Part shown: piece after piece, positions 3,041 to 52,556 of the stretch
How the letters are laid out: each line of letters opens with the position of its first letter
Position numbering within the stretch: position 1 is the first letter of the stretch
Sequence record: LC788705.1
DNA: 64,000 nt
Source: Escherichia coli phage NG_A1
Reading direction: 5' to 3' (one strand)
Made by a program: the position numbers and the translations under genes
The notes under the pieces: model-generated
Database searches by the model: none
Seen by the model: the letters and a program-made list of their open reading frames with translations, nothing else
What the model was told of the DNA's origin: nothing

Positions 3041-4058
3041 TTACTCGCTTTCGGTGTTAGTGGTAAAAGTAGAAATATCGATACCTTTTACCATTTCATC
3101 AATCATTTCAGCGATGTTAAAACTTTGCACCATTTCCAGCATTGCCGCTTCCATAGCCGCCCCTGCTACCGCTTTCGCCTTTTGGTTATTTGGGGCGTAT
3201 TGGTCAACCGCTACACTCAGCAGGTTAGCAATCACTACTCGACCAATAGGCGTATCGATATAACCTTTGATCATGAATGGTGCTTTTTTAGCCGCTACTT
3301 TCGTAATTTGAGTTAATGCAATTTTACCCGCCTCCAGTTTTGCAGCATTTACAACAGCGGATTTATTGGCGGCAACAATGTTAGCAATCTTGGTCATGGT
3401 GTTTTTTCCTTTGTTTTCAGTAGTTTGAGTGTTAACGCTTTGAGTGTTAGAATTTACAGCATGGTTTTCTACGCTGTCAATAATCTGATCTTCATCTTTC
3501 CAGAAAGAAAAACCAGCGCTTTCTATATCCCCATCATAAATATATGGGTATAGCTCCCGTGGTAACAAAAAATTACCGTCGTCATCAAAAGCCATTATAC
3601 CAGTATATTGAGATCCGTCGTTATCCGGCTTATGCCATCCAGCTGGTAAATACTTCCAGATAACATCTAAAAATCCCTCAATACTAGAAAGTCCGTTTAT
3701 CAGATCAAGCCCAATAAGCTCAAAACCATTTATATTAAATGATTGACGGCCTGAATTGCTATGATACGCAACAATATTATTACCCTGCGCAATAATAAAA
3801 TCGGTATCCGGCCCCGCTCCCCTGCCTGTAAAGATATGGCAATCCCGATTATATATATAAAACTAGCGTTGCCCCTTGCTTATATAATGGTAGAAAACTA
3901 TCCATATCATAGGCGTCATAATCATCAAAAAAGTTTTGATGAATAGTTTCAGCCTTGTTAATAAAATGTTTAATGCTGGTTGACTTGCTACCGTCCAGCA
4001 GGTTGCGCAATGCACCTTTTAAAACGGTGGCATTATCAGGTTTATACAGCCTCATTTG
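3041..4058 (-). CDS. Hypothetical pre-early protein, apparently interrupted by a +1 frameshift near 3849-3865 (fused product ~340 aa)
   Basis: Track ORFs 3849..4199 and 3041..3595 are joined by an 89-codon stop-free, start-less stretch (3596-3862) in the frame of the downstream ORF; strong GAGGGAGG RBS before ATG at 4058. Confidence 0.4.
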
Positions 4059-16626: not shown

Positions 16627-17843
16627 TGGGTTTAAAAAGCTGGATTACTGAAAAGTTAAATCCGGGTCAACGTATTATAAGAGACATGGAACCAGTTAGT
16701 CATCGCACTAACCGTAAGCCTTTTACCACTGGACAAGCCTACAGTAAAATTGAGATTCTCAATAGAACTGCTAATATGGTTATAGATAGTGCGGCGGAGT
16801 GTTCTTATACTGTCGGAGATAAATATAATATTGTTACGTACGCTAATGGCGTCAAAACAAAGACTCTAGACACTCTCTTAAATGTACGACCTAATCCATT
16901 CATGGATATAAGCACATTCCGTAGACTTGTAGTCACTGACCTACTTTTTGAAGGTTGTGCATACATCTATTGGGATGGCACATCGCTTTACCATGTCCCG
17001 GCTGCTCTTATGCAGGTCGAGGCAGATGCCAATAAGTTTATCAAAAAGTTTATATTTAATAATCAGATAGACTATCGCGTAGATGAGATTATCTTTATAA
17101 AGGATAACAGTTACGTGTGTGGCACAAATTCTCAAATTTCTGGACAATCTCGTGTTGCTACTGTTATTGATTCTCTTGAAAAGCGTTCTAAGATGCTTAA
17201 CTTTAAAGAGAAATTCCTCGATAACGGAACCGTGATTGGTCTTATTCTTGAGACGGATGAAATCCTGAACAAGAAATTGCGTGAGCGTAAACAAGAAGAA
17301 TTACAACTCGATTATAATCCTAGTACGGGTCAGTCTTCTGTCCTGATTCTAGATGGTGGTATGAAAGCTAAACCGTACTCCCAAATATCCTCTTTTAAAG
17401 ATCTAGACTTTAAGGAAGACATCGAAGGATTTAATAAATCTATTTGTCTAGCCTTTGGAGTTCCGCAAGTACTGCTTGATGGTGGTAATAATGCGAATAT
17501 TCGACCAAACATCGAACTGTTCTATTACATGACTATCATCCCTATGCTGAACAAGCTGACTAGTTCTCTTACTTTCTTTTTTGGTTATAAGATTACTCCT
17601 AATACTAAGGAAGTAGCTGCATTAACACCAGATAAAGAATCTGAGGCTAAACATTTAACCTCATTGGTTAATAATGGTATTATAACTGGTAACGAAGCTC
17701 GTTTAGAGCTGAACCTTGAGCCTTTAGATGATGAGCAGATGAATAAGATTCGTATTCCTGCTAACGTCGCTGGTTCTGCAACAGGCGTATCCGGTCAAGA
17801 AGGTGGTAGACCTCAAGGTTCCACCGAGGGAGATAAAGAATGA
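16626..17843 (+). CDS. Portal protein, pb7-like (405 aa)
   Basis: Size and position between terminase and protease/capsid genes. Confidence 0.7.
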   Translation: MGLKSWITEKLNPGQRIIRDMEPVSHRTNRKPFTTGQAYSKIEILNRTANMVIDSAAECSYTVGDKYNIVTYANGVKTKTLDTLLNVRPNPFMDISTFRRLVVTDLLFEGCAYIYWDGTSLYHVPAALMQVEADANKFIKKFIFNNQIDYRVDEIIFIKDNSYVCGTNSQISGQSRVATVIDSLEKRSKMLNFKEKFLDNGTVIGLILETDEILNKKLRERKQEELQLDYNPSTGQSSVLILDGGMKAKPYSQISSFKDLDFKEDIEGFNKSICLAFGVPQVLLDGGNNANIRPNIELFYYMTIIPMLNKLTSSLTFFFGYKITPNTKEVAALTPDKESEAKHLTSLVNNGIITGNEARLELNLEPLDDEQMNKIRIPANVAGSATGVSGQEGGRPQGSTEGDKE

Positions 17844-18328
17844 TTGATTATAGTGGTCTAAAGACCATTTTTGGTGAAAAACTACCAGAATCTCATATCT
17901 TCTTTGCTACGGTTGCTGCGCATAAATATGTTCCTAGCTATGCTTTTCTGCGTAGAGAACTAGGACTTTCATCTGCGCATACTAACCGCAAAGTATGGAA
18001 GAAATTTGCAGAGGCTTACGGTAAGGCTGGTCCAGTAGACGTTGTCCCTGGAGCTCCTACATTGCAAGTAACTCCAGGTGAAAATTCAGTAACTTATACA
18101 ATTACTGATGGTACTAATACTGGCTCACCAATCACCCAGTATAAAGTATACTATACTGATGGGGTTACTCCGAAAACCCACAATTCTGGGTCTTCTAAAA
18201 CAGGTACTATTTCTACCCTAGAAGCAAAAGAGTATACTTTCCAGGCAGTAGCTGTTAATGGGGCGGGAGAATCTCCTAAATCTACAGCAGTAAAAGCTAC
18301 CCCAACTGCACCTGGTGTTGGAGGCTAA
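17840..18328 (+). CDS. Capsid decoration protein with Ig/FN3-like C-terminal domain, pb10-like (162 aa)
   Basis: C-terminal beta-rich segment VTPGENSVTYTITDG...YTFQAVAVNGAGES. Confidence 0.55.
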   Translation: MIDYSGLKTIFGEKLPESHIFFATVAAHKYVPSYAFLRRELGLSSAHTNRKVWKKFAEAYGKAGPVDVVPGAPTLQVTPGENSVTYTITDGTNTGSPITQYKVYYTDGVTPKTHNSGSSKTGTISTLEAKEYTFQAVAVNGAGESPKSTAVKATPTAPGVGG

Positions 18329-32684: not shown

Positions 32685-34741
32685 TGATTTCAAATAATGC
32701 ACCAGCCAAAATGGTCTTAAATAGTATAATGACTGGATATACTTTGGCTTATGTCCAGCACTCCATCTATACTGATTATGATGTTATTGGTAGATCTTTT
32801 TGGTTAAAAATAGGAGAAAGTATAGATAGACGTGATTACACCGGTATAGATACTTTCTTCGTAATGATTAATAATCTAACCCCCTCTACCTCCTATGAGA
32901 TTCAGGGGGCTTTCTATGACTCAATTATTGACTCAGAGCTTTTAAATGCAAAAATTGGTATCAACCTCTCTAATGAAACTAACTTTAGAACAAAGGAAAA
33001 GCCAATAATTGTTGCAGCAAGATCTGAATCAGAACCCGTCGACGTAGGTGTTGGTGCTCCAATAGTTGTTGTAGATACTACTGGTGAAGCTAGTTACTGC
33101 ACTATTGAATTAAAAAGTACTGCATCAGAAGATAGTGAATGGGTTAAGTATTATATAGGTGCGCTGGGACCTACTATCAAATTTGGTGGTGTTCCTGTTG
33201 GTGACTATAAGATCAGAATATCTGGTCAAGTTACGATGCCAGATGGTGTTACAGTTGACTCATCTGGTTATTATGAATATCCTAGCGTTTTCACTGTAGC
33301 TTATAATTTCGTACCCCCTACTGCACCTACTAACATTGCCTTTAAAGCTGCACGAATTGCAGATGGTAAGGAACGATATGATGTTAGAATAGAATGGGAC
33401 TGGGAACGTGGTGCTGGTGCTAATGTCCGTGAATTTCTGGTTACTTATATAAACTCTGAAGAATATGCCAAGACTGGCTGGGCTAAAGCTCAAAAGATAA
33501 ACGTTGGAGCTGCTAGAGCTGCAACGATTATATCATTCCCATGGAAAGTTGAGCATACTTTTAAGGTATCATCAATTGCCTGGGGACCAAATAAGCAAGA
33601 TATAACAGAATCAGCTCCTGCAACATTTATATTGAATGAAGATACTCCTCTAGACAACAGTTTTGTCAATGAGACGGGTATTGATGTTAATTATGCCTTT
33701 ATTAAGGGCAGCATGAAAGATGGAGAAATCTGGAGACAGACATTCTTAATCGACGCAGCTACTGGTGCTATTAACATTGGTCTGCTAGATGAAGAAGGAA
33801 AAGCACCTATTTCTTTTGACCCTATAAACCGTGTTGTTAACGTTGATGGTAAAGTAATTACTAGAGATATTAATGCTGCGAACTTTATCATGACTAACTT
33901 ATCAGGTAAGGATAATCCAGCAATTTACACTCAAGGTAAATCTTGGGGGGATAATAATTCAGGTATTTGGATGGGTATGGATAATACCTCTGCCAAAGCT
34001 AAACTAGACATTGGTAATGCTACACAATGGATACGTTATGATGGTACTACTTTGCGTATCTCTAGTGGTGTAGTAATTGGAACACCAAATGGTGACGTAG
34101 ATATTGAAACTGGTTTACAAGGTAAACAGACAGTATTTGTTTATAAGTTAGCAACATCTCTACCTGCTAAACCACTAGAACAAGATTATCCGCCTCCTGG
34201 TTGGTCAAAAACTCCACCTAACCGTACAGATATGACACAGAATATCTATGCCACTACAGGTACGCTTGATCCCGTTACTAACAAACTTCTTGAAGGTACT
34301 AGCTGGTCTGATGTAGTTCAGTGGAGTGGTACTGAGGGTACTATAGGACATGATGGACAACGTGGTCCTGGAATGTACTCCTTAGGTATTCCTGGTCTTG
34401 GGGGCTGGGATGATGGGCAGGCTAATGCCTTCTTCCAGAATAACTTTGGTAGTCCTCCTGTTAGATATGATGTATTAACCGAATTTAATAGTAATGCTCC
34501 ACAATCAGCATTTACAAGGCAATGGAATGGGTCTGGTTGGGTTAGCCCTGCAATGGTTCTCCACGGAAACATGATTGTTAATGGGACGGTGACGGCAGAT
34601 AAAATTGTAGCAGGAAATGCTTTCTTATCTCAGATCGGTGTTAACATCATTTATGATAGAAATGCTGCGTTATCCGGGAATCCTGAGGCATACTACAAGA
34701 TGAAGATAGACCTAAATAGTGGGTATATCCATATAAGGTAA
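32669..34741 (+). CDS. Central straight fibre protein, pb4-like (690 aa)
   Basis: Size and position; beta-rich repeats. Confidence 0.65.
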   Translation: MGIHLMISNNAPAKMVLNSIMTGYTLAYVQHSIYTDYDVIGRSFWLKIGESIDRRDYTGIDTFFVMINNLTPSTSYEIQGAFYDSIIDSELLNAKIGINLSNETNFRTKEKPIIVAARSESEPVDVGVGAPIVVVDTTGEASYCTIELKSTASEDSEWVKYYIGALGPTIKFGGVPVGDYKIRISGQVTMPDGVTVDSSGYYEYPSVFTVAYNFVPPTAPTNIAFKAARIADGKERYDVRIEWDWERGAGANVREFLVTYINSEEYAKTGWAKAQKINVGAARAATIISFPWKVEHTFKVSSIAWGPNKQDITESAPATFILNEDTPLDNSFVNETGIDVNYAFIKGSMKDGEIWRQTFLIDAATGAINIGLLDEEGKAPISFDPINRVVNVDGKVITRDINAANFIMTNLSGKDNPAIYTQGKSWGDNNSGIWMGMDNTSAKAKLDIGNATQWIRYDGTTLRISSGVVIGTPNGDVDIETGLQGKQTVFVYKLATSLPAKPLEQDYPPPGWSKTPPNRTDMTQNIYATTGTLDPVTNKLLEGTSWSDVVQWSGTEGTIGHDGQRGPGMYSLGIPGLGGWDDGQANAFFQNNFGSPPVRYDVLTEFNSNAPQSAFTRQWNGSGWVSPAMVLHGNMIVNGTVTADKIVAGNAFLSQIGVNIIYDRNAALSGNPEAYYKMKIDLNSGYIHIR

Positions 34742-34747
34742 TAAATA

Positions 34748-35083
34748 ATGAGTACTGAAAATAGAGTTATAGACTTAGTGATAGATGAGAAAGTACCTTA
34801 TGGTCTAATGATGCAATTCTTAGATGTTGATGATAGTACTTATCCACCTACAAATACCCCTGTTAACTTAACGGGGTATTCTCTAAGGGGTACTATAAAG
34901 GCCGGGCTTGATGAGAATGCGGAAACTTTGGCATCTTTTACTACTAAAATTATTGATGCTGCTCAAGGTGCCATAGCTATAAGTTTACCTGTAGAGGCGG
35001 TAGATAATATTGGTGAAAAAGCTACCAAAGAGAGAGAGATAAGTATAACCCTCGCCAACGTTTTGCAGGATACTATGATATAA
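34748..35083 (+). CDS. Hypothetical tail-associated protein (111 aa)
   Basis: ORF between the pb4-like and tail-fibre genes. Confidence 0.4.
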
Positions 35084-35171
35084 TTATGACACGAGATGTC
35101 ATAGGATCAGCTATTAGCTCTTTTCGTATAATGGAGGGTAAAGTATTTATCAGTGATGGGGTAACTAGATA

Positions 35172-37226
35172 ATGGCAATAACTACTAAGATTATTGTACA
35201 ACAAATATTAAATATTGATGATACTAAAGCTACTGCTAGTAAATTTCCTAGATACACAGTAACTCTTGGAAATTCTATTAGCTCTATTACTGCTAATGAG
35301 TTAGTATCCTCTATAGAGGCCGCTGCTAAATCTGCTGCGGCTGCAAAAGATTCTGAAATAGCTGCTAAAACCTCAGAACTTAATGCTAAGAATTCGGAGC
35401 AGGAAGCTGCTATTTCTGCCGGGGCTTCAGAAGCTTCTGCTACTCAGTCTGCTACATCTGCTACTCAATCTGCTGCATCAGCTGATAAATCTGCAGAATC
35501 AGCCGCAGCAGCTAAAGTATCCGAGACTAATGCGAAGGCTAGTGAAACTAATGCTGCAGGATCTGCAACTTCTGCCAACCAATCTGTAACTACTATTCAA
35601 GGGCTTAAATCAGATGTTGAACAATTAAAATCTGATACCCAGGCCATTAAAAATAGTGCTGTAACAGAGACAGCAGCTTTAAAAGCAGATGTTGAGCAAT
35701 TAAAAACAGATACACAAGGTATTAAGGATAGCACGGTATCTGAGACAACAACTTTAAAAAACCAAGCTGCAACTTCTGCAACTAGTGCTGCTAATTCTGC
35801 TACTGAAGCAGGAAAACAAGCTACTAGTGCTGCCAATAGTGCTAATACTGCTAAAACTGAAGCCGACCGTTCAAAAACTGAGGCTGATAGATCAGAAGCT
35901 GCTGCTAATTCTACCCCCGACATTCAACCTCTTCCAGATGTATGGATACCGTTTAATGATTCTCTAGATATGATCACCGGCTTTGCACCAGGCTATAAAA
36001 AAATAACAGTTGGTGATGAGGAAATAACACTGCCTAGCGACAAGATTGTTAGCTTTACTCGTGCATCAACTGCGACCTATATCAATAAGTCCGGTATATT
36101 GACCATTGCTGAAGTTGACGAACCGCGATTTGAACGTGAAGGTTTGCTGATTGAAGGACAAAGAACTAACCTGCTAATCAATTCAACTGATCCGACTAAA
36201 TGGAACAAGTCATCAAATATGATCTTAGATAGATCAGGTGTAGATGATTTCGGATTCCAGTACGCAAAATTTACATTAAAACCAGAAATGGTAGGGCAAA
36301 CTTCAGCGATTAACATAGTAACCGTTTCCGGCAGCAGAGGTTTTGATGTAACAGGAAATGAAAAGTATGTAACCATATCATGCAGGGCGCAAAGTGGGAC
36401 TCCAAATTTAAGATGCCGATTACGATTTGAAAACTACGATGGATCTGCTTATACATTTTTGGGTGATGCTTACGTAAATCTGACAGATTTATCAATTGAA
36501 AAAACTGGCGGCGCTGCAAATCGTATTACTGCAAGGGCTGTTAAAGATGAAGCAAGCAAATGGATTTTCTTTGAGGCAACAATTAAAGCACTTGATACAG
36601 AAAATATGATCGGTGCAATGGTGCATTATGCACCAGCAAAAGGGGGAGGTACTGGTGTAGATGATTATATTTATATTGCGACCCCTCAAGTTGAAGGTGG
36701 GGCATGTGCTTCATCCTTTATTATTACAGAAGCAACTCCAGTGACAAGGGCTAGTGATATGGTTACAATGCCAATCAAAAACAACCTTTACAATTTGCCG
36801 TTTACAGTACTTGTGGAAGCTAATAAAAACTGGAGTATAACGCCAAATGCTGCGCCTCGTGTTTTCGATACTAGAGGTCATCAATCTGGTGCGGCAATTA
36901 TTCTTGCTTTCGGATCTGCCGAAGGCGATAATGATGGATTCCCTTATTGCGATATAGGTAAATCAAACAGAAGGGTTTACGAGAATGCAAAACTAAAAAA
37001 GATGATTATGGGAATGAGAGTAAAGAGTGATTACAATAATTGCTGTGTAAGTAATGCCAGAATATCAAGCGAAACAAAAACGGAATGGAGATACATACAA
37101 TCAACGGCTACTATAAGGATTGGAGGACAAACAAATACTGGAGAACGACATTTATTTGGCCATATCCGAAACTTTAGAATCTGGCATAAGGAACTAACTG
37201 ATAGACAAATGAAGGAGTATGTATGA
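35172..37226 (+). CDS. L-shaped (side) tail fibre protein, LtfA-like (684 aa)
   Basis: Ala/Ser/Thr-rich N-terminal coiled-coil with repeated KSDVEQLKSDTQAIK units; C-terminal globular domain; no C-terminal chaperone domain. Confidence 0.65.
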   Translation: MAITTKIIVQQILNIDDTKATASKFPRYTVTLGNSISSITANELVSSIEAAAKSAAAAKDSEIAAKTSELNAKNSEQEAAISAGASEASATQSATSATQSAASADKSAESAAAAKVSETNAKASETNAAGSATSANQSVTTIQGLKSDVEQLKSDTQAIKNSAVTETAALKADVEQLKTDTQGIKDSTVSETTTLKNQAATSATSAANSATEAGKQATSAANSANTAKTEADRSKTEADRSEAAANSTPDIQPLPDVWIPFNDSLDMITGFAPGYKKITVGDEEITLPSDKIVSFTRASTATYINKSGILTIAEVDEPRFEREGLLIEGQRTNLLINSTDPTKWNKSSNMILDRSGVDDFGFQYAKFTLKPEMVGQTSAINIVTVSGSRGFDVTGNEKYVTISCRAQSGTPNLRCRLRFENYDGSAYTFLGDAYVNLTDLSIEKTGGAANRITARAVKDEASKWIFFEATIKALDTENMIGAMVHYAPAKGGGTGVDDYIYIATPQVEGGACASSFIITEATPVTRASDMVTMPIKNNLYNLPFTVLVEANKNWSITPNAAPRVFDTRGHQSGAAIILAFGSAEGDNDGFPYCDIGKSNRRVYENAKLKKMIMGMRVKSDYNNCCVSNARISSETKTEWRYIQSTATIRIGGQTNTGERHLFGHIRNFRIWHKELTDRQMKEYV

Positions 37227-37501
37227 GAGATATAATCCTAAAGTTCACAGATAAATCAACATATAAAGATTTTCTCATTCAAATAGGGTGGGATACTAAT
37301 GAAACTTTGCAAAACCAAATAATGCTTGATGAAATTGGCTATACTTATACTGAAATCTCTCCGCTAGGCGATGAGGAGCCTAGATGCATCCGTAATGAAG
37401 GGTATTATGTTAATGTAAGGATTCTTGATGAATCCTTTACTTACGAATACTTCGAGCCTTTTATAGTTCAGCTAGAACAGCCTCTTAGAGTATGGGCATA
37501 A
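37223..37501 (+). CDS. Hypothetical tail-fibre-associated protein (92 aa)
   Basis: ORF overlapping the stop of the upstream fibre gene. Confidence 0.4.
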   Translation: MRDIILKFTDKSTYKDFLIQIGWDTNETLQNQIMLDEIGYTYTEISPLGDEEPRCIRNEGYYVNVRILDESFTYEYFEPFIVQLEQPLRVWA

Positions 37502-37510
37502 GGTTTTATA

Positions 37511-39240
37511 ATGGTAACTAAAACAGTAATTCCTACGGATATTACAAAACTTAAAAATGAGTCACTTAACAAGAATAATAACTTAAGTGACTTAGCAGAC
37601 CGTGCAGCAGCATGGCTAAATGTGCGTCCTATTGGGTCCACCCCTCTTGCGGGGGACCCTGTTGGGGACTACGATGCTGCAACCAAACGTTGGGTAGAGA
37701 ATAAGATTAACACTGGTACAGTCGGCCCCACTATGAATGGTGTTATGAACTACGGCGTTGGTGATTTCCACCTTCGAGATAGTCGTGCATATATTCAACC
37801 ATACGAAGTCGTTTCTGACGGACAGCTTCTTAATAGGGCTGACTGGCCTGAACTTTGGGCGTATGCACAAATGGTTGGGGCTATAGATGATTCAGTTTGG
37901 TTAGGAGATAAATTCCAGCGCGGTAAGTACTCATCAGGTAATGGAACAACAACCTTTCGTGTTCCAGATAAGAATGGGGTGCAGGAGGGATCAATACGCG
38001 CTCTTTATGGCCGTGGAGATGGTGGGAATAGTGGTGCAAATGGGCAACTGTTCGAATCCGCTGCGCCTAATATTACAGGTTTTTCACCACATATGCCTCT
38101 CAAACCTATGCCCAGGCATTAGGACATACAGGTGGTTGCTTTAGTGCAAACAATAATGCGTTTCCTGACGGAAGAGGTGACGGAATCGCTCCAGGGTCTA
38201 CAGCTCTTGCTGGACGTTATAATACCTGCGACTTCAATGCCTCAATATCAAGTCCGATTTACGGGGCATCAACAGATGAGATTCTTACACGAAACTTTGT
38301 CGGCGTCTGGGTAATCCGTGCTTCTGGTGGGTTCGTGGCAGCAAATACATCATGGAGTGTTATTAACGCTGATAAAACAACCCCCGATTCAGGTGTTGTT
38401 GTTTCTGGTGGTAGTGTTAAATCTGAATATAAATCTCCCAGTGCAAGTGTAACAGCGGAACTAAAATCAAGTAAAGTAATTAATGGTGCATGGGGTGTTA
38501 GCTTAACTATAACAGATGATAGAGGGATCCCTGTAAGCATTAAGTATGACAGTAATGGTCAGTTTTCAACATCTCATAGGCCATCTGGAGTCGGTACTGG
38601 GAGTTCCTATACTCATTGCGCTTATCGCGCGCCAGACTGGTGGAATAACACAGCATATAGTGCCTTCGTACCAATTCTTGGAGGTGGTAGCGGTAATTCA
38701 CTAAAGAACTATAGATCTTTTGCTTGTTTTGGACAAATATCTTATCCTGATTCTAGTAATAGTTATCCTAGAGCTGCAATTGCTCAAGTAAGGGATTGGG
38801 CACTACCAGATGGTGAACAAGGTAACGGCAAGAGTATTACCGTGTTTACGTTTATTGATAATTCATTTGACCTTCAATATGGGTACAACGATGGTTCGCT
38901 AAACTATATTTTTTCAAAATCTCCAATTTGTGATGAAAGATTAAAGAAAAATATTGAATCCATTGATACTAATATTGCAATAAGTAATATTAAGCAGATG
39001 TCATATAAATCATACATCTATAAAAATGACGAGAATGAACAGGTGCGCCGTGGTTTTATAGCTCAGGATTTACAGAAAATAGATCCCCAATATGTACGGG
39101 AATATGGAGATCCTGGAAGAGAGAAAACGTTGGCCATTGATGAAAACGTTATGTTGCTTGATTCAGTTGCTGCGGTTAAGTGGCTTATTAATAAAGTTGA
39201 GGAGTTGCAAGAAGAAATAAATGTATTGAAAGCTAAGTAA
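37511..39240 (+). CDS. Second tail fibre protein with tail-collar-like domain and C-terminal intramolecular chaperone (S74-type) domain; reading frame interrupted by an apparent -1 frameshift at ~38070-38122
   Basis: Track ORFs 37511..38122 (frame 2) and 38335..39240 (frame 1); frame 1 is stop-free and start-less from 38071 and reads GASTDEILTRNFVGVWVIRASGG; C-terminal DERLKKNIESID...RRGFIAQDLQKIDPQYV chaperone-like. Confidence 0.5.
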
Positions 39241-39283
39241 AAGAAAACCCCAGAGGGATATCCCTCTGGGGTTTATTATTATT
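39241..39283. terminator. Bidirectional intrinsic terminator between convergent late and early modules
   Basis: 10-bp GC-rich stem CCCCAGAGGG-ATAT-CCCTCTGGGG flanked by an A-tract upstream and T-tract downstream. Confidence 0.85.
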
Positions 39284-49678: not shown

Positions 49679-50569
49679 TTATACCAAATCTTTAAGCGAT
49701 TCAGCAACTAAAATTTCAATACGTTTTGCTAACATATCAATTTCTTCTTTATTTAAGTCACCGGGGTCTTTACCTTCGGGTAGAAGAAAGTTAGCAACTA
49801 CAGGTGTTAAACGCGTTTTTGTACGAATTAACTTGGCCAATGCTTGTGCAGCCTTATTACCAGAAGCATCATTATCTAGTAAGATAACAACAACTTTTAC
49901 ACCAGCAATAATATAAGGGCTGAACTTATCTGCAATATTATCCGAGGTAAACTGATGTGTACCAAAGCAACAAGAAGCATAGTCTATACCATTATCCTCT
50001 AGGTTCAGCATATCAAAGATACCTTCAACTAGAATAAGAACTGGAGTATTATATCGTACAGGGAAAATCGGTGGTGAAACTTGTTTTGGTTTTACTAAGT
50101 ATTTAGGAGGGGCAGAACTGTTTATAGAACGACCCAAAAATAGGATATTGCGTCCAACAGCATCTGTGATTGGGAATACAATTCTGCCTTCCCAGTCTGC
50201 TTGGTGTTGGAAAGCAAAATATTTCTTCAAGGTCTTAGAACTTATACCTCGGAAATCACCTTCGAAAAGGTAAGCAGATTCAGGAATTGCAAGATTTGTA
50301 GATCCATTCCTAATCTCTGAAATCTTTTTACGTACCTGCGATAGTCTTGGAGACTGTCGGTACTGAGTCTCATTAAAATAATGGTAAATGCTCGGTATAC
50401 CTTTACCGAAGCCACAACTCAAGCAGTGCATAATACCTGTTTCAGGATCAATACGCAAACTTGGATGTTTATCGTCATGATCTGGATTTAAGCAACAGAT
50501 TAAAATATCTCCACCAGTATCTTTATACTCAATTCCCTTAAGATCAAGTAATTCTGTTATTCGACTCAT
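49679..50569 (-). CDS. DnaG-type DNA primase (296 aa)
   Basis: Zinc-binding CCLNPDHDDKHPS...HCLSCG; TOPRIM motifs EGIFD and LDNDASG. Confidence 0.75.
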   Translation of the reverse strand: MSRITELLDLKGIEYKDTGGDILICCLNPDHDDKHPSLRIDPETGIMHCLSCGFGKGIPSIYHYFNETQYRQSPRLSQVRKKISEIRNGSTNLAIPESAYLFEGDFRGISSKTLKKYFAFQHQADWEGRIVFPITDAVGRNILFLGRSINSSAPPKYLVKPKQVSPPIFPVRYNTPVLILVEGIFDMLNLEDNGIDYASCCFGTHQFTSDNIADKFSPYIIAGVKVVVILLDNDASGNKAAQALAKLIRTKTRLTPVVANFLLPEGKDPGDLNKEEIDMLAKRIEILVAESLKDLV

Positions 50570-51087
50570 GAATTTAACTCCTCCAGTGAAGGATACTTAG
50601 TTGGATCAAAAATCTCTTGAACAGCATTTTCTCCATGTAATTGTAGACGTAGTTCATTGGCTTTAGTGACTGCAAGCTTTAGATCTGCATAATTAAAGAG
50701 CCCACCGTGAACTTTTTCTCCCATAGAATTTACTACTCTTACATGCCATTTGTGATCCCGCTTAAACCAGAAAACTCCCAAGTACCCAGATTTACTTCTA
50801 GCTGTTTTATTTCTGCTATTTTCTTGCCGGGTGGATGGCCTAATATTAATCCATCTATTATCCCAAGTAATTCGATTAATATGGTCTACTTCCCCTGGCA
50901 TATATCCTTCCATATATAGGAAGGCTAGTTGGTGTGCAAAGTATAATTTTCTATCTACCTTTATCCGTATGTATCCACTATCTAGAGTACCCGCAATACT
51001 ACCAGCTTTCTGATTGCCTCTAGATACTTTTCTAGTAAACTCCCCAGTCTCTGGGGAGTAGTCAAATAGTTCTGTTATTCTACTCAT
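50566..51087 (-). CDS. HNH homing endonuclease with AP2-like DNA-binding domain (173 aa)
   Basis: HNH_3 motif VDHINRITWDNRWINIR; AP2-like KSGYLGVFWFKRDHKWHVRV; ATGA overlaps at both ends. Confidence 0.75.
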   Translation of the reverse strand: MSRITELFDYSPETGEFTRKVSRGNQKAGSIAGTLDSGYIRIKVDRKLYFAHQLAFLYMEGYMPGEVDHINRITWDNRWINIRPSTRQENSRNKTARSKSGYLGVFWFKRDHKWHVRVVNSMGEKVHGGLFNYADLKLAVTKANELRLQLHGENAVQEIFDPTKYPSLEELNS

Positions 51088-52556
51088 ATATCGCTGGCCT
51101 GTTCACCTGTTGAATTTTCAGCTTTGTCTTTCTTAGCACGTTTAGATTGAGCCGGCTTATCCTTCTCAATAGGGATAACGAACTCAGCTTCCATTTGAGA
51201 TATATCTTCCATTGCTAGATTGGTAGTGTTATCCATCCGCAGGGTTTCCCAGTTCATTTTAGGCATAAACTTCACGCTATCAGAAGAACGAGTCTTAACG
51301 AAGTCAAACATAATAGCACCTTGACCATTATCAGCTTTTGCAGCATTAAGATTAGCAGCCATGTCTGCGGAATCAAGAATCCCCTTTGACATACGTGTTC
51401 TACCATCTTGATCGATCTGGTAAGGAGCTACGCCAGCCACGTTATGTTTCTGGCAGATGGATTTGAAAGACGAGCTAACAACCATCTGTTCTTTCCAGTC
51501 ATACATATCAATGGTTTTAGAATCTGGAAGTCGGGTTTGGTTAATATAGTCCAGTAAAGCTACTGTAACTTTATCACCATATCTAGCAACTAATTTATTT
51601 AATTCTACGTCAACTGTTGTAATGGACAGTTCAGGGTCATAAACGATAATCATAGGAGTATGTAGTTCATACCCTTCTATTAGCTTACTCTCCATATCGT
51701 AGAAATCACTCATCTTAGCCATTGTATACTGTTTAACGAAGTTATCGAAAAGCTCTTCACCACCGTTGAACATTCTAGCTCTAGTTCTGGCTAATCTCAA
51801 TAGAGCTGCACCTTCTAGAGTATTATTACGCATTGCTAGTGCTGATACCCCGGCTAACATGGCTAGATTACGTCTAAATACTTCATGTTCTTTCATCTCA
51901 ATTGAGAAGTATGGAGCAATATCTCCATTCAAATATTGCTGAACCTGTATGTTTGAACAGATAATGGATTTACCAGTACCACGCCAACCACCAAGCAGTA
52001 ACGTTTCTGTGCGAGCTAAACCAATTTGAGCGTCGAACTCATTACAAATACCAAGAGCGATTAAGTTCAGTTTGGTATCTTCTTCTCTCTGGAAAATACG
52101 CATGTTATCTGCGTTGAATACTTTTCCAGTATTCGTTACTTTCTCTTCTAATTTTAAGTGAAGGGAGGCAACTCGGTTGAGAATTTCTCCCTGATCCAGC
52201 ATTGTTAAATCTTGAAGCACGTCTGTTTCTAGAAGCTTCAGGAATAAATCCTGTGTATATTCAGCCTCTAGGACTTCAAGTGCCTGTTCCATGCTCACTT
52301 CTGGAATTTGAGTGTTAGCTAAGACGACTAGAGCTTGAGAAAGGCGGGCGTTCCTATTAGCTTCAAGCATAAGTGCGTCAATGGACGGCATTGTGTTATA
52401 TTTTTTATAATAATTCTGGACGGCTTGGTAAATTGAGGAGAAAGCGTCATTAAAATGATCTTTATGCAGTTTTGAGAATGTTTCCAATGCTATTTGCTTC
52501 TGTTCGGAAGCTAGAAGCATCTTCAACACTACAGCTTGCACGTTAAACAAGGTCAT
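51084..52556 (-). CDS. DnaB-like replicative helicase (490 aa from the RBS-supported ATG)
   Basis: Walker A GGWRGTGKS; AAAGGAGA RBS before ATG at 52556; track ORF starts at an upstream alternative codon. Confidence 0.7.
   Translation of the reverse strand: MTLFNVQAVVLKMLLASEQKQIALETFSKLHKDHFNDAFSSIYQAVQNYYKKYNTMPSIDALMLEANRNARLSQALVVLANTQIPEVSMEQALEVLEAEYTQDLFLKLLETDVLQDLTMLDQGEILNRVASLHLKLEEKVTNTGKVFNADNMRIFQREEDTKLNLIALGICNEFDAQIGLARTETLLLGGWRGTGKSIICSNIQVQQYLNGDIAPYFSIEMKEHEVFRRNLAMLAGVSALAMRNNTLEGAALLRLARTRARMFNGGEELFDNFVKQYTMAKMSDFYDMESKLIEGYELHTPMIIVYDPELSITTVDVELNKLVARYGDKVTVALLDYINQTRLPDSKTIDMYDWKEQMVVSSSFKSICQKHNVAGVAPYQIDQDGRTRMSKGILDSADMAANLNAAKADNGQGAIMFDFVKTRSSDSVKFMPKMNWETLRMDNTTNLAMEDISQMEAEFVIPIEKDKPAQSKRAKKDKAENSTGEQASDI

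Follow-up and report, generated by a model that had tools for sequence, protein, structure and literature searches.

Phage T5 builds its lateral (L-shaped) tail fibre from the product of a single long gene, pb1 (1396 amino acids, aa; about 1400 in the initial annotation of the DNA studied here). The branched fibre of DT57C has been defined by a phiEco32 gp14-like region of LtfA (residues 223-471) that is proposed to bind LtfB, a gp15-like N-terminus of LtfB, and an S74 intramolecular chaperone domain on both proteins (Golomidova et al. 2016, PMC4728585); the N-terminal anchor part of LtfA inserts into LtfC, a dodecameric ring that clamps fibre N-termini and is reportedly indispensable for attaching the fibre (PMC10713586). 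Phage vB_Eco_mar004NP2 has only an orthologue of ltfB together with two upstream genes, one of which probably forms a fibre with the ltfB product, and mass spectrometry of its virions detected a homologue of the proximal fibre protein described below (Michniewski et al. 2019, PMC6563131). For IrisVonRoten (Bas32), the published account models the distal fibre Gp24 as T-shaped, bearing two receptor-binding domains and attached to the proximal protein Gp22, whose C-terminus includes a galectin-like domain and perhaps thereby a further receptor-binding domain (Humolli et al. 2025, PMC11990801). The subject of this work is the lateral-fibre locus of Escherichia coli phage NG_A1 (record LC788705.1), contained in a stretch of 64,000 nucleotides (nt) hereafter called the window, which we consider probable to be a module of the Bas32 type with two genes broken by replication slippage, most likely yielding particles without fibres.

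The window is a T5-like (Tequintavirus) genome, whose nearest record in the phage collection is that of Salmonella phage VSe12 (also Tequintavirus; 95.2% across the locus). Genes resembling pb3 and pb4 end at 34741 and are followed by the collar gene ltfC, a first (proximal) fibre gene, a gene for a 92-aa protein, a second (distal) fibre gene and the convergent dUTPase and flap-endonuclease genes (dut and D15; Table 1), an order that matches those of VSe12, Stokescottia, Bas32, EC100 and PMBT29. The spacing, with the 92-aa gene overlapping the proximal stop and the distal gene starting about 10 nt further on, is likewise the same in all five, and the stops and new starts at 37226/37223 and 37501/37511 are kept in these relatives. 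The proposal that the fibre is encoded by separate genes instead of one pb1-type gene thus stands, since three genes are read between conserved stops and starts.

All three proteins are homologous over their full length to those of Bas32 (Gp22 75% identical over 635 aa, Gp23 97%, Gp24 51%), gene order and spacing are identical, and an S74 chaperone stands at the end of the fibre in both phages. Moreover, the last 171 aa of the proximal proteins are 98% identical and the first 30 aa of the distal proteins are the same. The differences lie in the proximal stalk, which is longer in Bas32 (796 aa for the protein, as opposed to 684 in NG_A1); in the proximal spike-fibre domain, of which Bas32 has another allele (51%), the nearest versions to that of NG_A1 being found in T1-like phages and Seuratvirus (95-97%); in the distal tip (aa 311-470), which is 29% identical in Bas32 and 95-99% in EC100 and Stokescottia; and in the frameshifts of the NG_A1 ltfC and distal genes. 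With a proximal protein bearing the spike-fibre domain in its C-terminal part, a 92-aa gene and a distal gene with the shared N-terminal motif all in place, the layout is, as far as sequence comparison goes, of the same kind as in IrisVonRoten/Bas32 and vB_Eco_mar004NP2, and the published accounts of those two phages make it an organisation that was already known.

Table 1. Positions of features in and around the NG_A1 lateral-fibre locus (window coordinates unless a compared locus is named)
Feature	Position	Strand	Evidence
ltfC/p132 collar gene, frameshifted	34748..35171	+	PF23926, tblastn, alignments
(AG)5 tract inside ltfC	35029..35039	+	sequence
Proximal lateral-fibre protein, 684 aa, intact	35172..37226	+	open reading frame, phrog_1419
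N-terminal anchor region, aa 1-115	35172..35516	+	PDB 8hqz_d match, alignment
Ala/Ser-rich coiled-coil stalk with repeats	35517..35915	+	alignment gaps, tandem repeats
Gene transfer agent head-spike-fibre domain, aa 326-527	36147..36752	+	NF048003, PDB 6tb9
C-terminal stretch, weak Laminin_G_3 (ConA-like) signature, no S74	37068..37208	+	PF13385, sub-threshold
92-aa conserved protein	37223..37501	+	open reading frame, phrog_1361
Distal lateral-fibre gene, 576 aa when repaired, frameshifted	37511..39240	+	open reading frames, phrog_6921
Conserved N-terminal motif of distal protein	37511..37561	+	comparison of third-gene products
T5 run, one T short	38080..38084	+	alignment with VSe12 and EC100
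S74 intramolecular chaperone domain, aa 474-529 of repaired protein	38929..39096	+	PF13884
Terminator-like hairpin, 13-bp stem, scored on both strands	39245..39274	.	between distal fibre gene and convergent dUTPase gene
Further tract sites in loci compared with the window	L022:1064-1074; L023:6283-6289; L033 near 5245

Relative to T5, the locus occupies the same genomic slot, between pb4/p132 and dut, and pb1 likewise starts with a homologous anchor and stalk (aa 1-239, 44% identity) and carries its S74 domain at the far end of the fibre; pb1, however, is one polypeptide where NG_A1 has three genes. T5-like anchoring at the collar is indicated by an ltfC/p132 gene directly upstream and an LtfA/pb1-like N-terminus of the first fibre protein. 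Full-length collinearity with pb1 after repair of the frameshift, the refuting outcome named in the initial annotation, was not found: only residues 1-239 of the 684-aa protein align, and BLASTP of pb1 against the repaired 576-aa distal protein gave no significant similarity. Because the likeness to pb1 is limited to the N-terminal ~115-240 residues, a frameshifted pb1 was ruled out.

The same annotation had compared the locus to the two-gene branched fibres of DT57C, in which LtfA sits on the tail and LtfB on the side of LtfA. NG_A1 shares with DT57C and DT571/2 the LtfC collar, the anchor of the first protein, and the central domain and S74 end of the distal protein, so that two fibre genes and an LtfA-like N-terminus can be cited for a branch. 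Nevertheless, the alignment of the first protein with LtfA ends at residue ~250 (LtfA ~235), and both the gp14-like region and an S74 domain are absent from it. The gp15-like N-terminus of LtfB (~45 aa) is also absent, the likeness starting only at distal residue 30 (LtfB 206), S74 domains are found on both DT57C fibre proteins but only on the distal one in NG_A1, and DT57C lacks the 92-aa gene. Judged by alignment, none of the three defining features of the DT57C fibre holds in NG_A1. In addition, the central region of the distal protein, located ahead of a variable tip and of S74, shows 64% identity with LtfA 511-821 and 59% with LtfB 206-511; as it answers about equally well to both, the locus is better read as a proximal and a distal fibre joined end to end than as a branch, in line with the proximal plus T-shaped distal arrangement modelled for Bas32 (PMC11990801). 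A branched fibre is accordingly very unlikely here.

As it stands, the ltfC open reading frame (ORF; 34748-35083) encodes 111 aa, 97 native and 14 out of frame, and what remains of the gene is read in a different frame as far as a TAA at 35169-35171. The gene matches the LtfC family (PF23926). Its frameshift, missed in the initial annotation, is evident from tblastn of the 140-aa VSe12 collar protein, which splits between frames at 35029-35038; by comparison with VSe12 and Stokescottia, it results from a 2-nt AG insertion. Once repaired, the 140-aa LtfC aligns over residues 1-140 with LtfC of DT57C (8hqz_Q; E 1.6e-75) and p132 of T5 (7qg9_R). The T5 reference sequence (NC_005859, L006:6056-6480) also presents its collar gene as two ORFs, T5.135 and T5.136, split away from the position of the AG tract; the solved T5 structures use a 140-aa p132.

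The (AG)5 allele, together with an identical 111-aa product, recurs in an independent Logan contig (ERR13992119) with 66 mismatches to the window over 1170 positions. Within ltfC there are seven differences, each of them synonymous, including two that lie downstream of the tract and are read in the original frame. The opposite lesion, (AG)3, is found in two distinct genomes, that of Salmonella phage PMBT29 and an SRR11277240 contig of 59.7 kb; both read ACC AAA GAG AGA TAA and encode a 96-aa product. Of the IMG/VR and metagenome contigs that have this allele family, 9 of 9 show an in-frame (AG)4, and, in INPHARED, all of the close matches listed except PMBT29 have the (AG)4 length. Most genomes are thus (AG)4, with out-of-frame alleles in four distinct genomes and in both directions, and slippage both ways at one 8-nt tract, seen in four genomes from different sequencing sources, is not expected from sequencing error. 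The ltfC lesion is therefore very probably real and recurrent, the tract being a frameshift hot spot, and an LtfC deprived of residues 98-140 of its single-domain beta-sandwich would probably be inactive.

The distal gene is affected by a lesion of the same kind. The interval 37511-39240 measures 1730 nt, which is not a multiple of three, so that the gene of about 576 aa initially reported is not a single ORF here; the other two ORFs, of the sizes given at the same time (684 and 92 aa), are intact. A 203-aa ORF (37511-38122) is followed by the remainder in another frame, which is open over 38071-39240 and is listed from a GTG at 38335 as 301 aa (38335-39240), the two frames therefore overlapping around the T-run (38071-38122). 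There, an alignment including Stokescottia shows one T missing, T5 replacing the T6 of VSe12 and EC100. Insertion of one T restores a 576-aa protein that shares 96.5% identity with its intact EC100 counterpart, also of 576 aa, and 83% with that of Stokescottia. The restored protein matches phrog_6921 'tail fiber protein' (E 2e-207) and has an S74 domain at its C-terminal end (PF13884; 53.2 bits versus a cut-off of 22, E 3.7e-14). A Pfam search of the 684-aa protein, by contrast, found no S74 domain, in agreement with the original suggestion of a coiled-coil fibre whose chaperone resides on a downstream gene. The Pfam Collar match in the distal protein is not significant (E 5.2). At the S74 cleavage motif, the residue at 38929-38931 is Cys474 (C-D-E-R-L-K), as in EC100 and Stokescottia, whereas T5 pb1, Bas32 Gp24 and DT57C LtfA have Ser at the first S-D-x-R-L-K position. 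Relative to VSe12, the ratio of non-synonymous to synonymous substitution rates (dN/dS) of the distal gene is 0.055, indicating that any inactivation is very recent. In VSe12 itself, the distal gene (L001:5543-7290) contains three separate homopolymer indels (+C, -C, -T) and appears in the annotation as two fragments; its collar and proximal fibre genes are whole and its other genes look intact.

Expression of the distal fibre could conceivably be rescued by programmed -1 ribosomal slippage on GGT-TTT-TCA: the frames overlap at the right place, and the exact wild-type peptide (GFFT) would result if tRNA-Phe slipped by -1 in the P site on the U5 run. The site is not a canonical X XXY YYZ heptamer, however, the closest relatives simply have an in-frame T6, and Bas32 and Stokescottia diverge there without a conserved slippery site. 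Programmed frameshifting was rejected as the main explanation on account of these relatives, and we regard it as barely credible.

A further question is whether the frameshifts exist outside the database. Mapping of about 70 VSe12 proteins on the window identified only three that are split across frames, namely ltfC, the distal fibre gene and a gene for a 336-aa hypothetical protein; two of the three hence fall within the fibre genes, which hold 7% of the sequence (~0.014 by a simple binomial of our own arithmetic). That all three are sequencing or assembly errors, and the real NG_A1 module intact and working, would be consistent with three indels in 64 kb that all sit in simple repeats, as in an imperfectly polished long-read assembly, with a T5/T6 homopolymer as the classic error context, with strong purifying selection on the distal gene up to the present, and with the attribution of the split collar gene of the T5 reference to sequence error by Ayala et al. 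(PMC10713586). Such a blanket explanation is nonetheless decidedly unlikely, considering the identical (AG)5 ltfC and 111-aa product in the independent ERR13992119 assembly, the opposite (AG)3 allele in the mutually different PMBT29 and SRR11277240 sequences, and the clustering in the fibre genes. A mixed case, in which the ltfC frameshift is real and the single-T deletion a sequencing error, is a tentative possibility that deserves more weight: independent replication exists for ltfC only and for no T-run allele, and the homopolymer context applies to the T-run. Against it, the three homopolymer indels of VSe12, the closest relative, are confined to the distal gene while about 70 of its other proteins align over their full length, which suggests real decay of the distal gene in this clade; with ltfC off, that gene would no longer be needed and would be free to drift. 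As to the T-run deletion itself, homopolymer context, lone allele and dN/dS favour error, and VSe12 decay and frameshift clustering favour mutation.

The polyG tracts of Campylobacter phages are phage contingency loci. In coliphages, such loci have recently been reported at homopolymers of T2 agt and T4 rIIA (bioRxiv 10.1101/2025.10.21.683753). The ltfC tract resembles them in being a short simple repeat with slippage frameshifts that recur both ways across genomes, as (AG)3, (AG)4 and (AG)5 alleles, but it comprises only four dinucleotide units and its target is the fibre anchor instead of a receptor-binding or defence-evasion gene. The (AG)4 tract, possibly with the T6 and other homopolymers of the distal gene, could be a reversible switch for display of the lateral fibres, with stocks hedging their bets as mixtures of fibred and fibre-less particles; NG_A1 and the ERR13992119 contig may then be in an (AG)5 OFF state, and PMBT29 and the SRR11277240 contig in an (AG)3 OFF state. 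Out-of-frame alleles of both lengths at a single 8-nt tract, and the original frame kept past the tract between the two (AG)5 strains (2 synonymous and 0 non-synonymous differences), speak for a switch. We nevertheless rate it unlikely, because a hypermutable repeat of only (AG)4 would be short and OFF alleles are few (1 of ~35 close INPHARED records, 0 of 9 IMG/VR and metagenome contigs). Simple repeats are, besides, under-represented in tail-fibre genes (bioRxiv 10.1101/2025.10.21.683753), and the data are explained equally well by ordinary laboratory selection for fibre loss, acting where slippage occurs most easily; the recurrent alleles could just mark such a site in a gene that phages in culture can do without or even profit from losing.

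The proximal protein, 100% identical to the deposited NG_A1 protein, matches phrog_1419 'tail protein' (E 2e-254), is the homologue of IrisVonRoten Gp22 and has a dN/dS of 0.10 relative to VSe12. Its residues 1-236 match PDB 8hqz_d (E 1.6e-32), with invariant columns in the alignment with the collar-inserting segment of LtfA/pb1; within this region, the N-terminal anchor common to T5 pb1 and DT57C LtfA is 95-100% identical among T5-like relatives. The stalk that follows contains tandem repeats with periods of 21 and 75 nt and, owing to in-frame loss of SETNAK-type repeats (seen as alignment gaps), is shorter than in any of the aligned T5-like relatives (whole proteins of 698-804 aa). Shorter proximal proteins (634 and 648 aa) occur among the closest database matches.

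Beyond the stalk lies a domain related to the head-spike fibre of a gene transfer agent (NCBIfam NF048003, 63.2 bits versus a cut-off of 36), whose aa 293-542 match chain residues 43-286 of Rcc01080 (PDB 6tb9; E 4.9e-7). Rcc01080 mediates attachment of the gene transfer agent RcGTA to capsular polysaccharide (Bardy et al. 2020, PMC7296036); the homologous domain belongs to a single subunit on the capsid in RcGTA, as opposed to the end of a trimeric tail-fibre stalk in NG_A1. In an AlphaFold2 model of the C-terminal 436 aa (mean predicted local distance difference test score, pLDDT, 53.8), only aa ~338-513 are confidently placed, and Foldseek matches this beta-sandwich to chains of the phage Pa193/E217 baseplate/tail-fibre complexes, to CBM4 and to legume lectins. 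Aa 326-527 are accordingly predicted to be a beta-sandwich with a carbohydrate-binding-module/lectin-like fold. In the C-terminal stretch, PF13385 (Laminin_G_3) gives only a hint (E 0.027; 15.1 bits, under the cut-off of 27.6).

The ATG of the 92-aa gene overlaps the stop of the proximal gene (ATGA) and is preceded by an AAGGAG ribosome-binding site. Its product, a homologue of IrisVonRoten Gp23 that is encoded between the two fibre genes throughout the cassettes compared, matches phrog_1361 'unknown function' and is modelled by AlphaFold2 with a pLDDT of 86; searches returned no Pfam or NCBIfam family, no PDB sequence match and no informative fold match, the fold matches in BFVD being uncharacterised phage proteins only. 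By tblastn, the gene is found in 210 phage records, and nearly all annotated rows among the matches listed adjoin a tail or tail-fibre gene. A profile search collected 77 representatives, most of them free-standing proteins 85-125 aa long; matches in multiple copies within giant PKD-domain proteins (1360-6112 aa; P0184, P0185, P0195) are probably repeat-driven noise and were not relied on. At residue 90, where the family almost invariably has Glu (...R-E-W-A), the window encodes Val (37490-37492), and one other member has Gly.

The core of this cassette extends to Seuratvirus, T1-like phages and lambdoid prophages. Seuratvirus KurtStettler has genes of 583, 92 and 510 aa, the C-terminal 468 aa of its proximal protein being 83.5% identical to those of the window, and a swan01-like T1-type phage has genes of 659, 92 and 224 aa. 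A lambdoid prophage on an IMG/VR contig (L019:1116-4496, beside a zinT-like gene) combines a Stf-like fibre with a PF08400-type N-terminus, its gene frameshift-split near 3090-3146, with a 93-aa homologue and, as third gene, a short fibre of 234 aa that bears a chaperone domain. Although otherwise unrelated, the third-gene products of KurtStettler (510 aa), the T1-type phage (224 aa) and the prophage (234 aa) share with NG_A1 the N-terminal motif M-V/A-T-x-T-V/I-I-P-x-D-I-T-x-L-K. This motif, not present in DT57C LtfB, may be a docking peptide for the proximal fibre, the 92-aa protein or both. Sub-domain identities among the cassettes reveal heavy mosaicism. Taken together, these comparisons suggest a joint made of the 92-aa protein together with the C-terminal domain of the proximal fibre and the N-terminus of the distal one, everything past the distal motif being perhaps exchangeable; given the mosaicism, co-variation assigns no partner to the 92-aa protein.

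In an intact module, the LtfC ring would clamp the N-terminus of the 684-aa proximal fibre, a trimeric coiled-coil stalk that would end in the carbohydrate-binding-module-like domain and have no chaperone of its own. The distal fibre would dock on the end of the proximal one through its conserved ~17-30-residue N-terminal motif, bear the variable receptor-binding parts and fold with its own C-terminal S74 chaperone; by homology to Gp24 as modelled for Bas32 (PMC11990801), it may be a T-shaped trimer with two receptor-binding domains. The 92-aa protein could be a component of the joint or an assembly factor for the chaperone-less proximal fibre. In NG_A1, two of these four genes would have been broken by replication slippage, (AG)5 replacing (AG)4 in ltfC and T5 replacing T6 in the distal gene, so that the particles most likely lack functional lateral fibres, or at least their distal half. 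Rough hosts can be infected without lateral fibres, and passage gives rise to ltf mutants (PMC4728585); such a loss would be tolerable because the fibres are not required on hosts without a shielding O-antigen.

Several points weigh against this account. The fibre-less virion is a phenotype that we infer from the lesions. The T5 allele lacks independent confirmation, the 203-aa product being found only in the NG_A1 record, and the low dN/dS, which implies selection until very recently, suits a sequencing error as well as a recent mutation. The AlphaFold2 model of the proximal protein is poor outside its one confident segment. The 92-aa protein has been placed at the joint from conservation of the cassette, and its pattern of sub-domain identities follows neither neighbour cleanly.

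Elsewhere in the window, the third frameshift lies at ~3848-3860, in a minus-strand gene (4055-3044) of the terminal-repeat (pre-early) region, where (TA)5 replaces the (TA)3 of VSe12 (+4 nt) and splits the homologue of the 336-aa hypothetical protein. The Hoc-like head-decoration protein (17840-18316) is 50% identical to that of VSe12 and flanked by genes that are 99-100% identical, while, of the HNH homing endonucleases of VSe12, one has no orthologue in the window and another is 64% identical (about 50569-51100). The T5 annotation has a bidirectional terminator at the place equivalent to the hairpin that follows the distal gene. By exact look-up, four ORF products of the locus are deposited under NG_A1 accessions BEU75659, BEU75661, BEU75662 and BEU75663; the record calls its 111-, 92-, 203- and 301-aa products hypothetical proteins NGA1_0420, 0440, 0450 and 0460. 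A literature search on NG_A1, KS_S14 and PMBT29 found nothing relevant.

In summary, the NG_A1 locus is one more mosaic member of a documented fibre make-up. Since lateral fibres decide which O-antigen types can be penetrated, this modular make-up matters for host-range prediction and phage engineering; yet the annotation of NG_A1 lists the fragments as unrelated hypothetical proteins, and host-range inference would be wrong unless the ltfC and distal frameshifts are noticed. As to the different or dual polysaccharide specificity first proposed for the locus, more than one glycan-binding domain is plausible, considering the carbohydrate-binding-module-like domain and the homology to Gp24, but, with ltfC and the distal gene frameshifted, that specificity is probably not expressed in NG_A1. 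The (AG)n tract of ltfC is a recurrent site of fibre loss in isolates and should be checked in T5-like phages meant for smooth strains; if it were truly a switch, this contingency locus would target the fibre anchor and not the receptor-binding tip. Finally, the 92-aa protein and the distal motif travel together across four phage groups and may mark a fibre-to-fibre joint usable for swapping receptor-binding tips.

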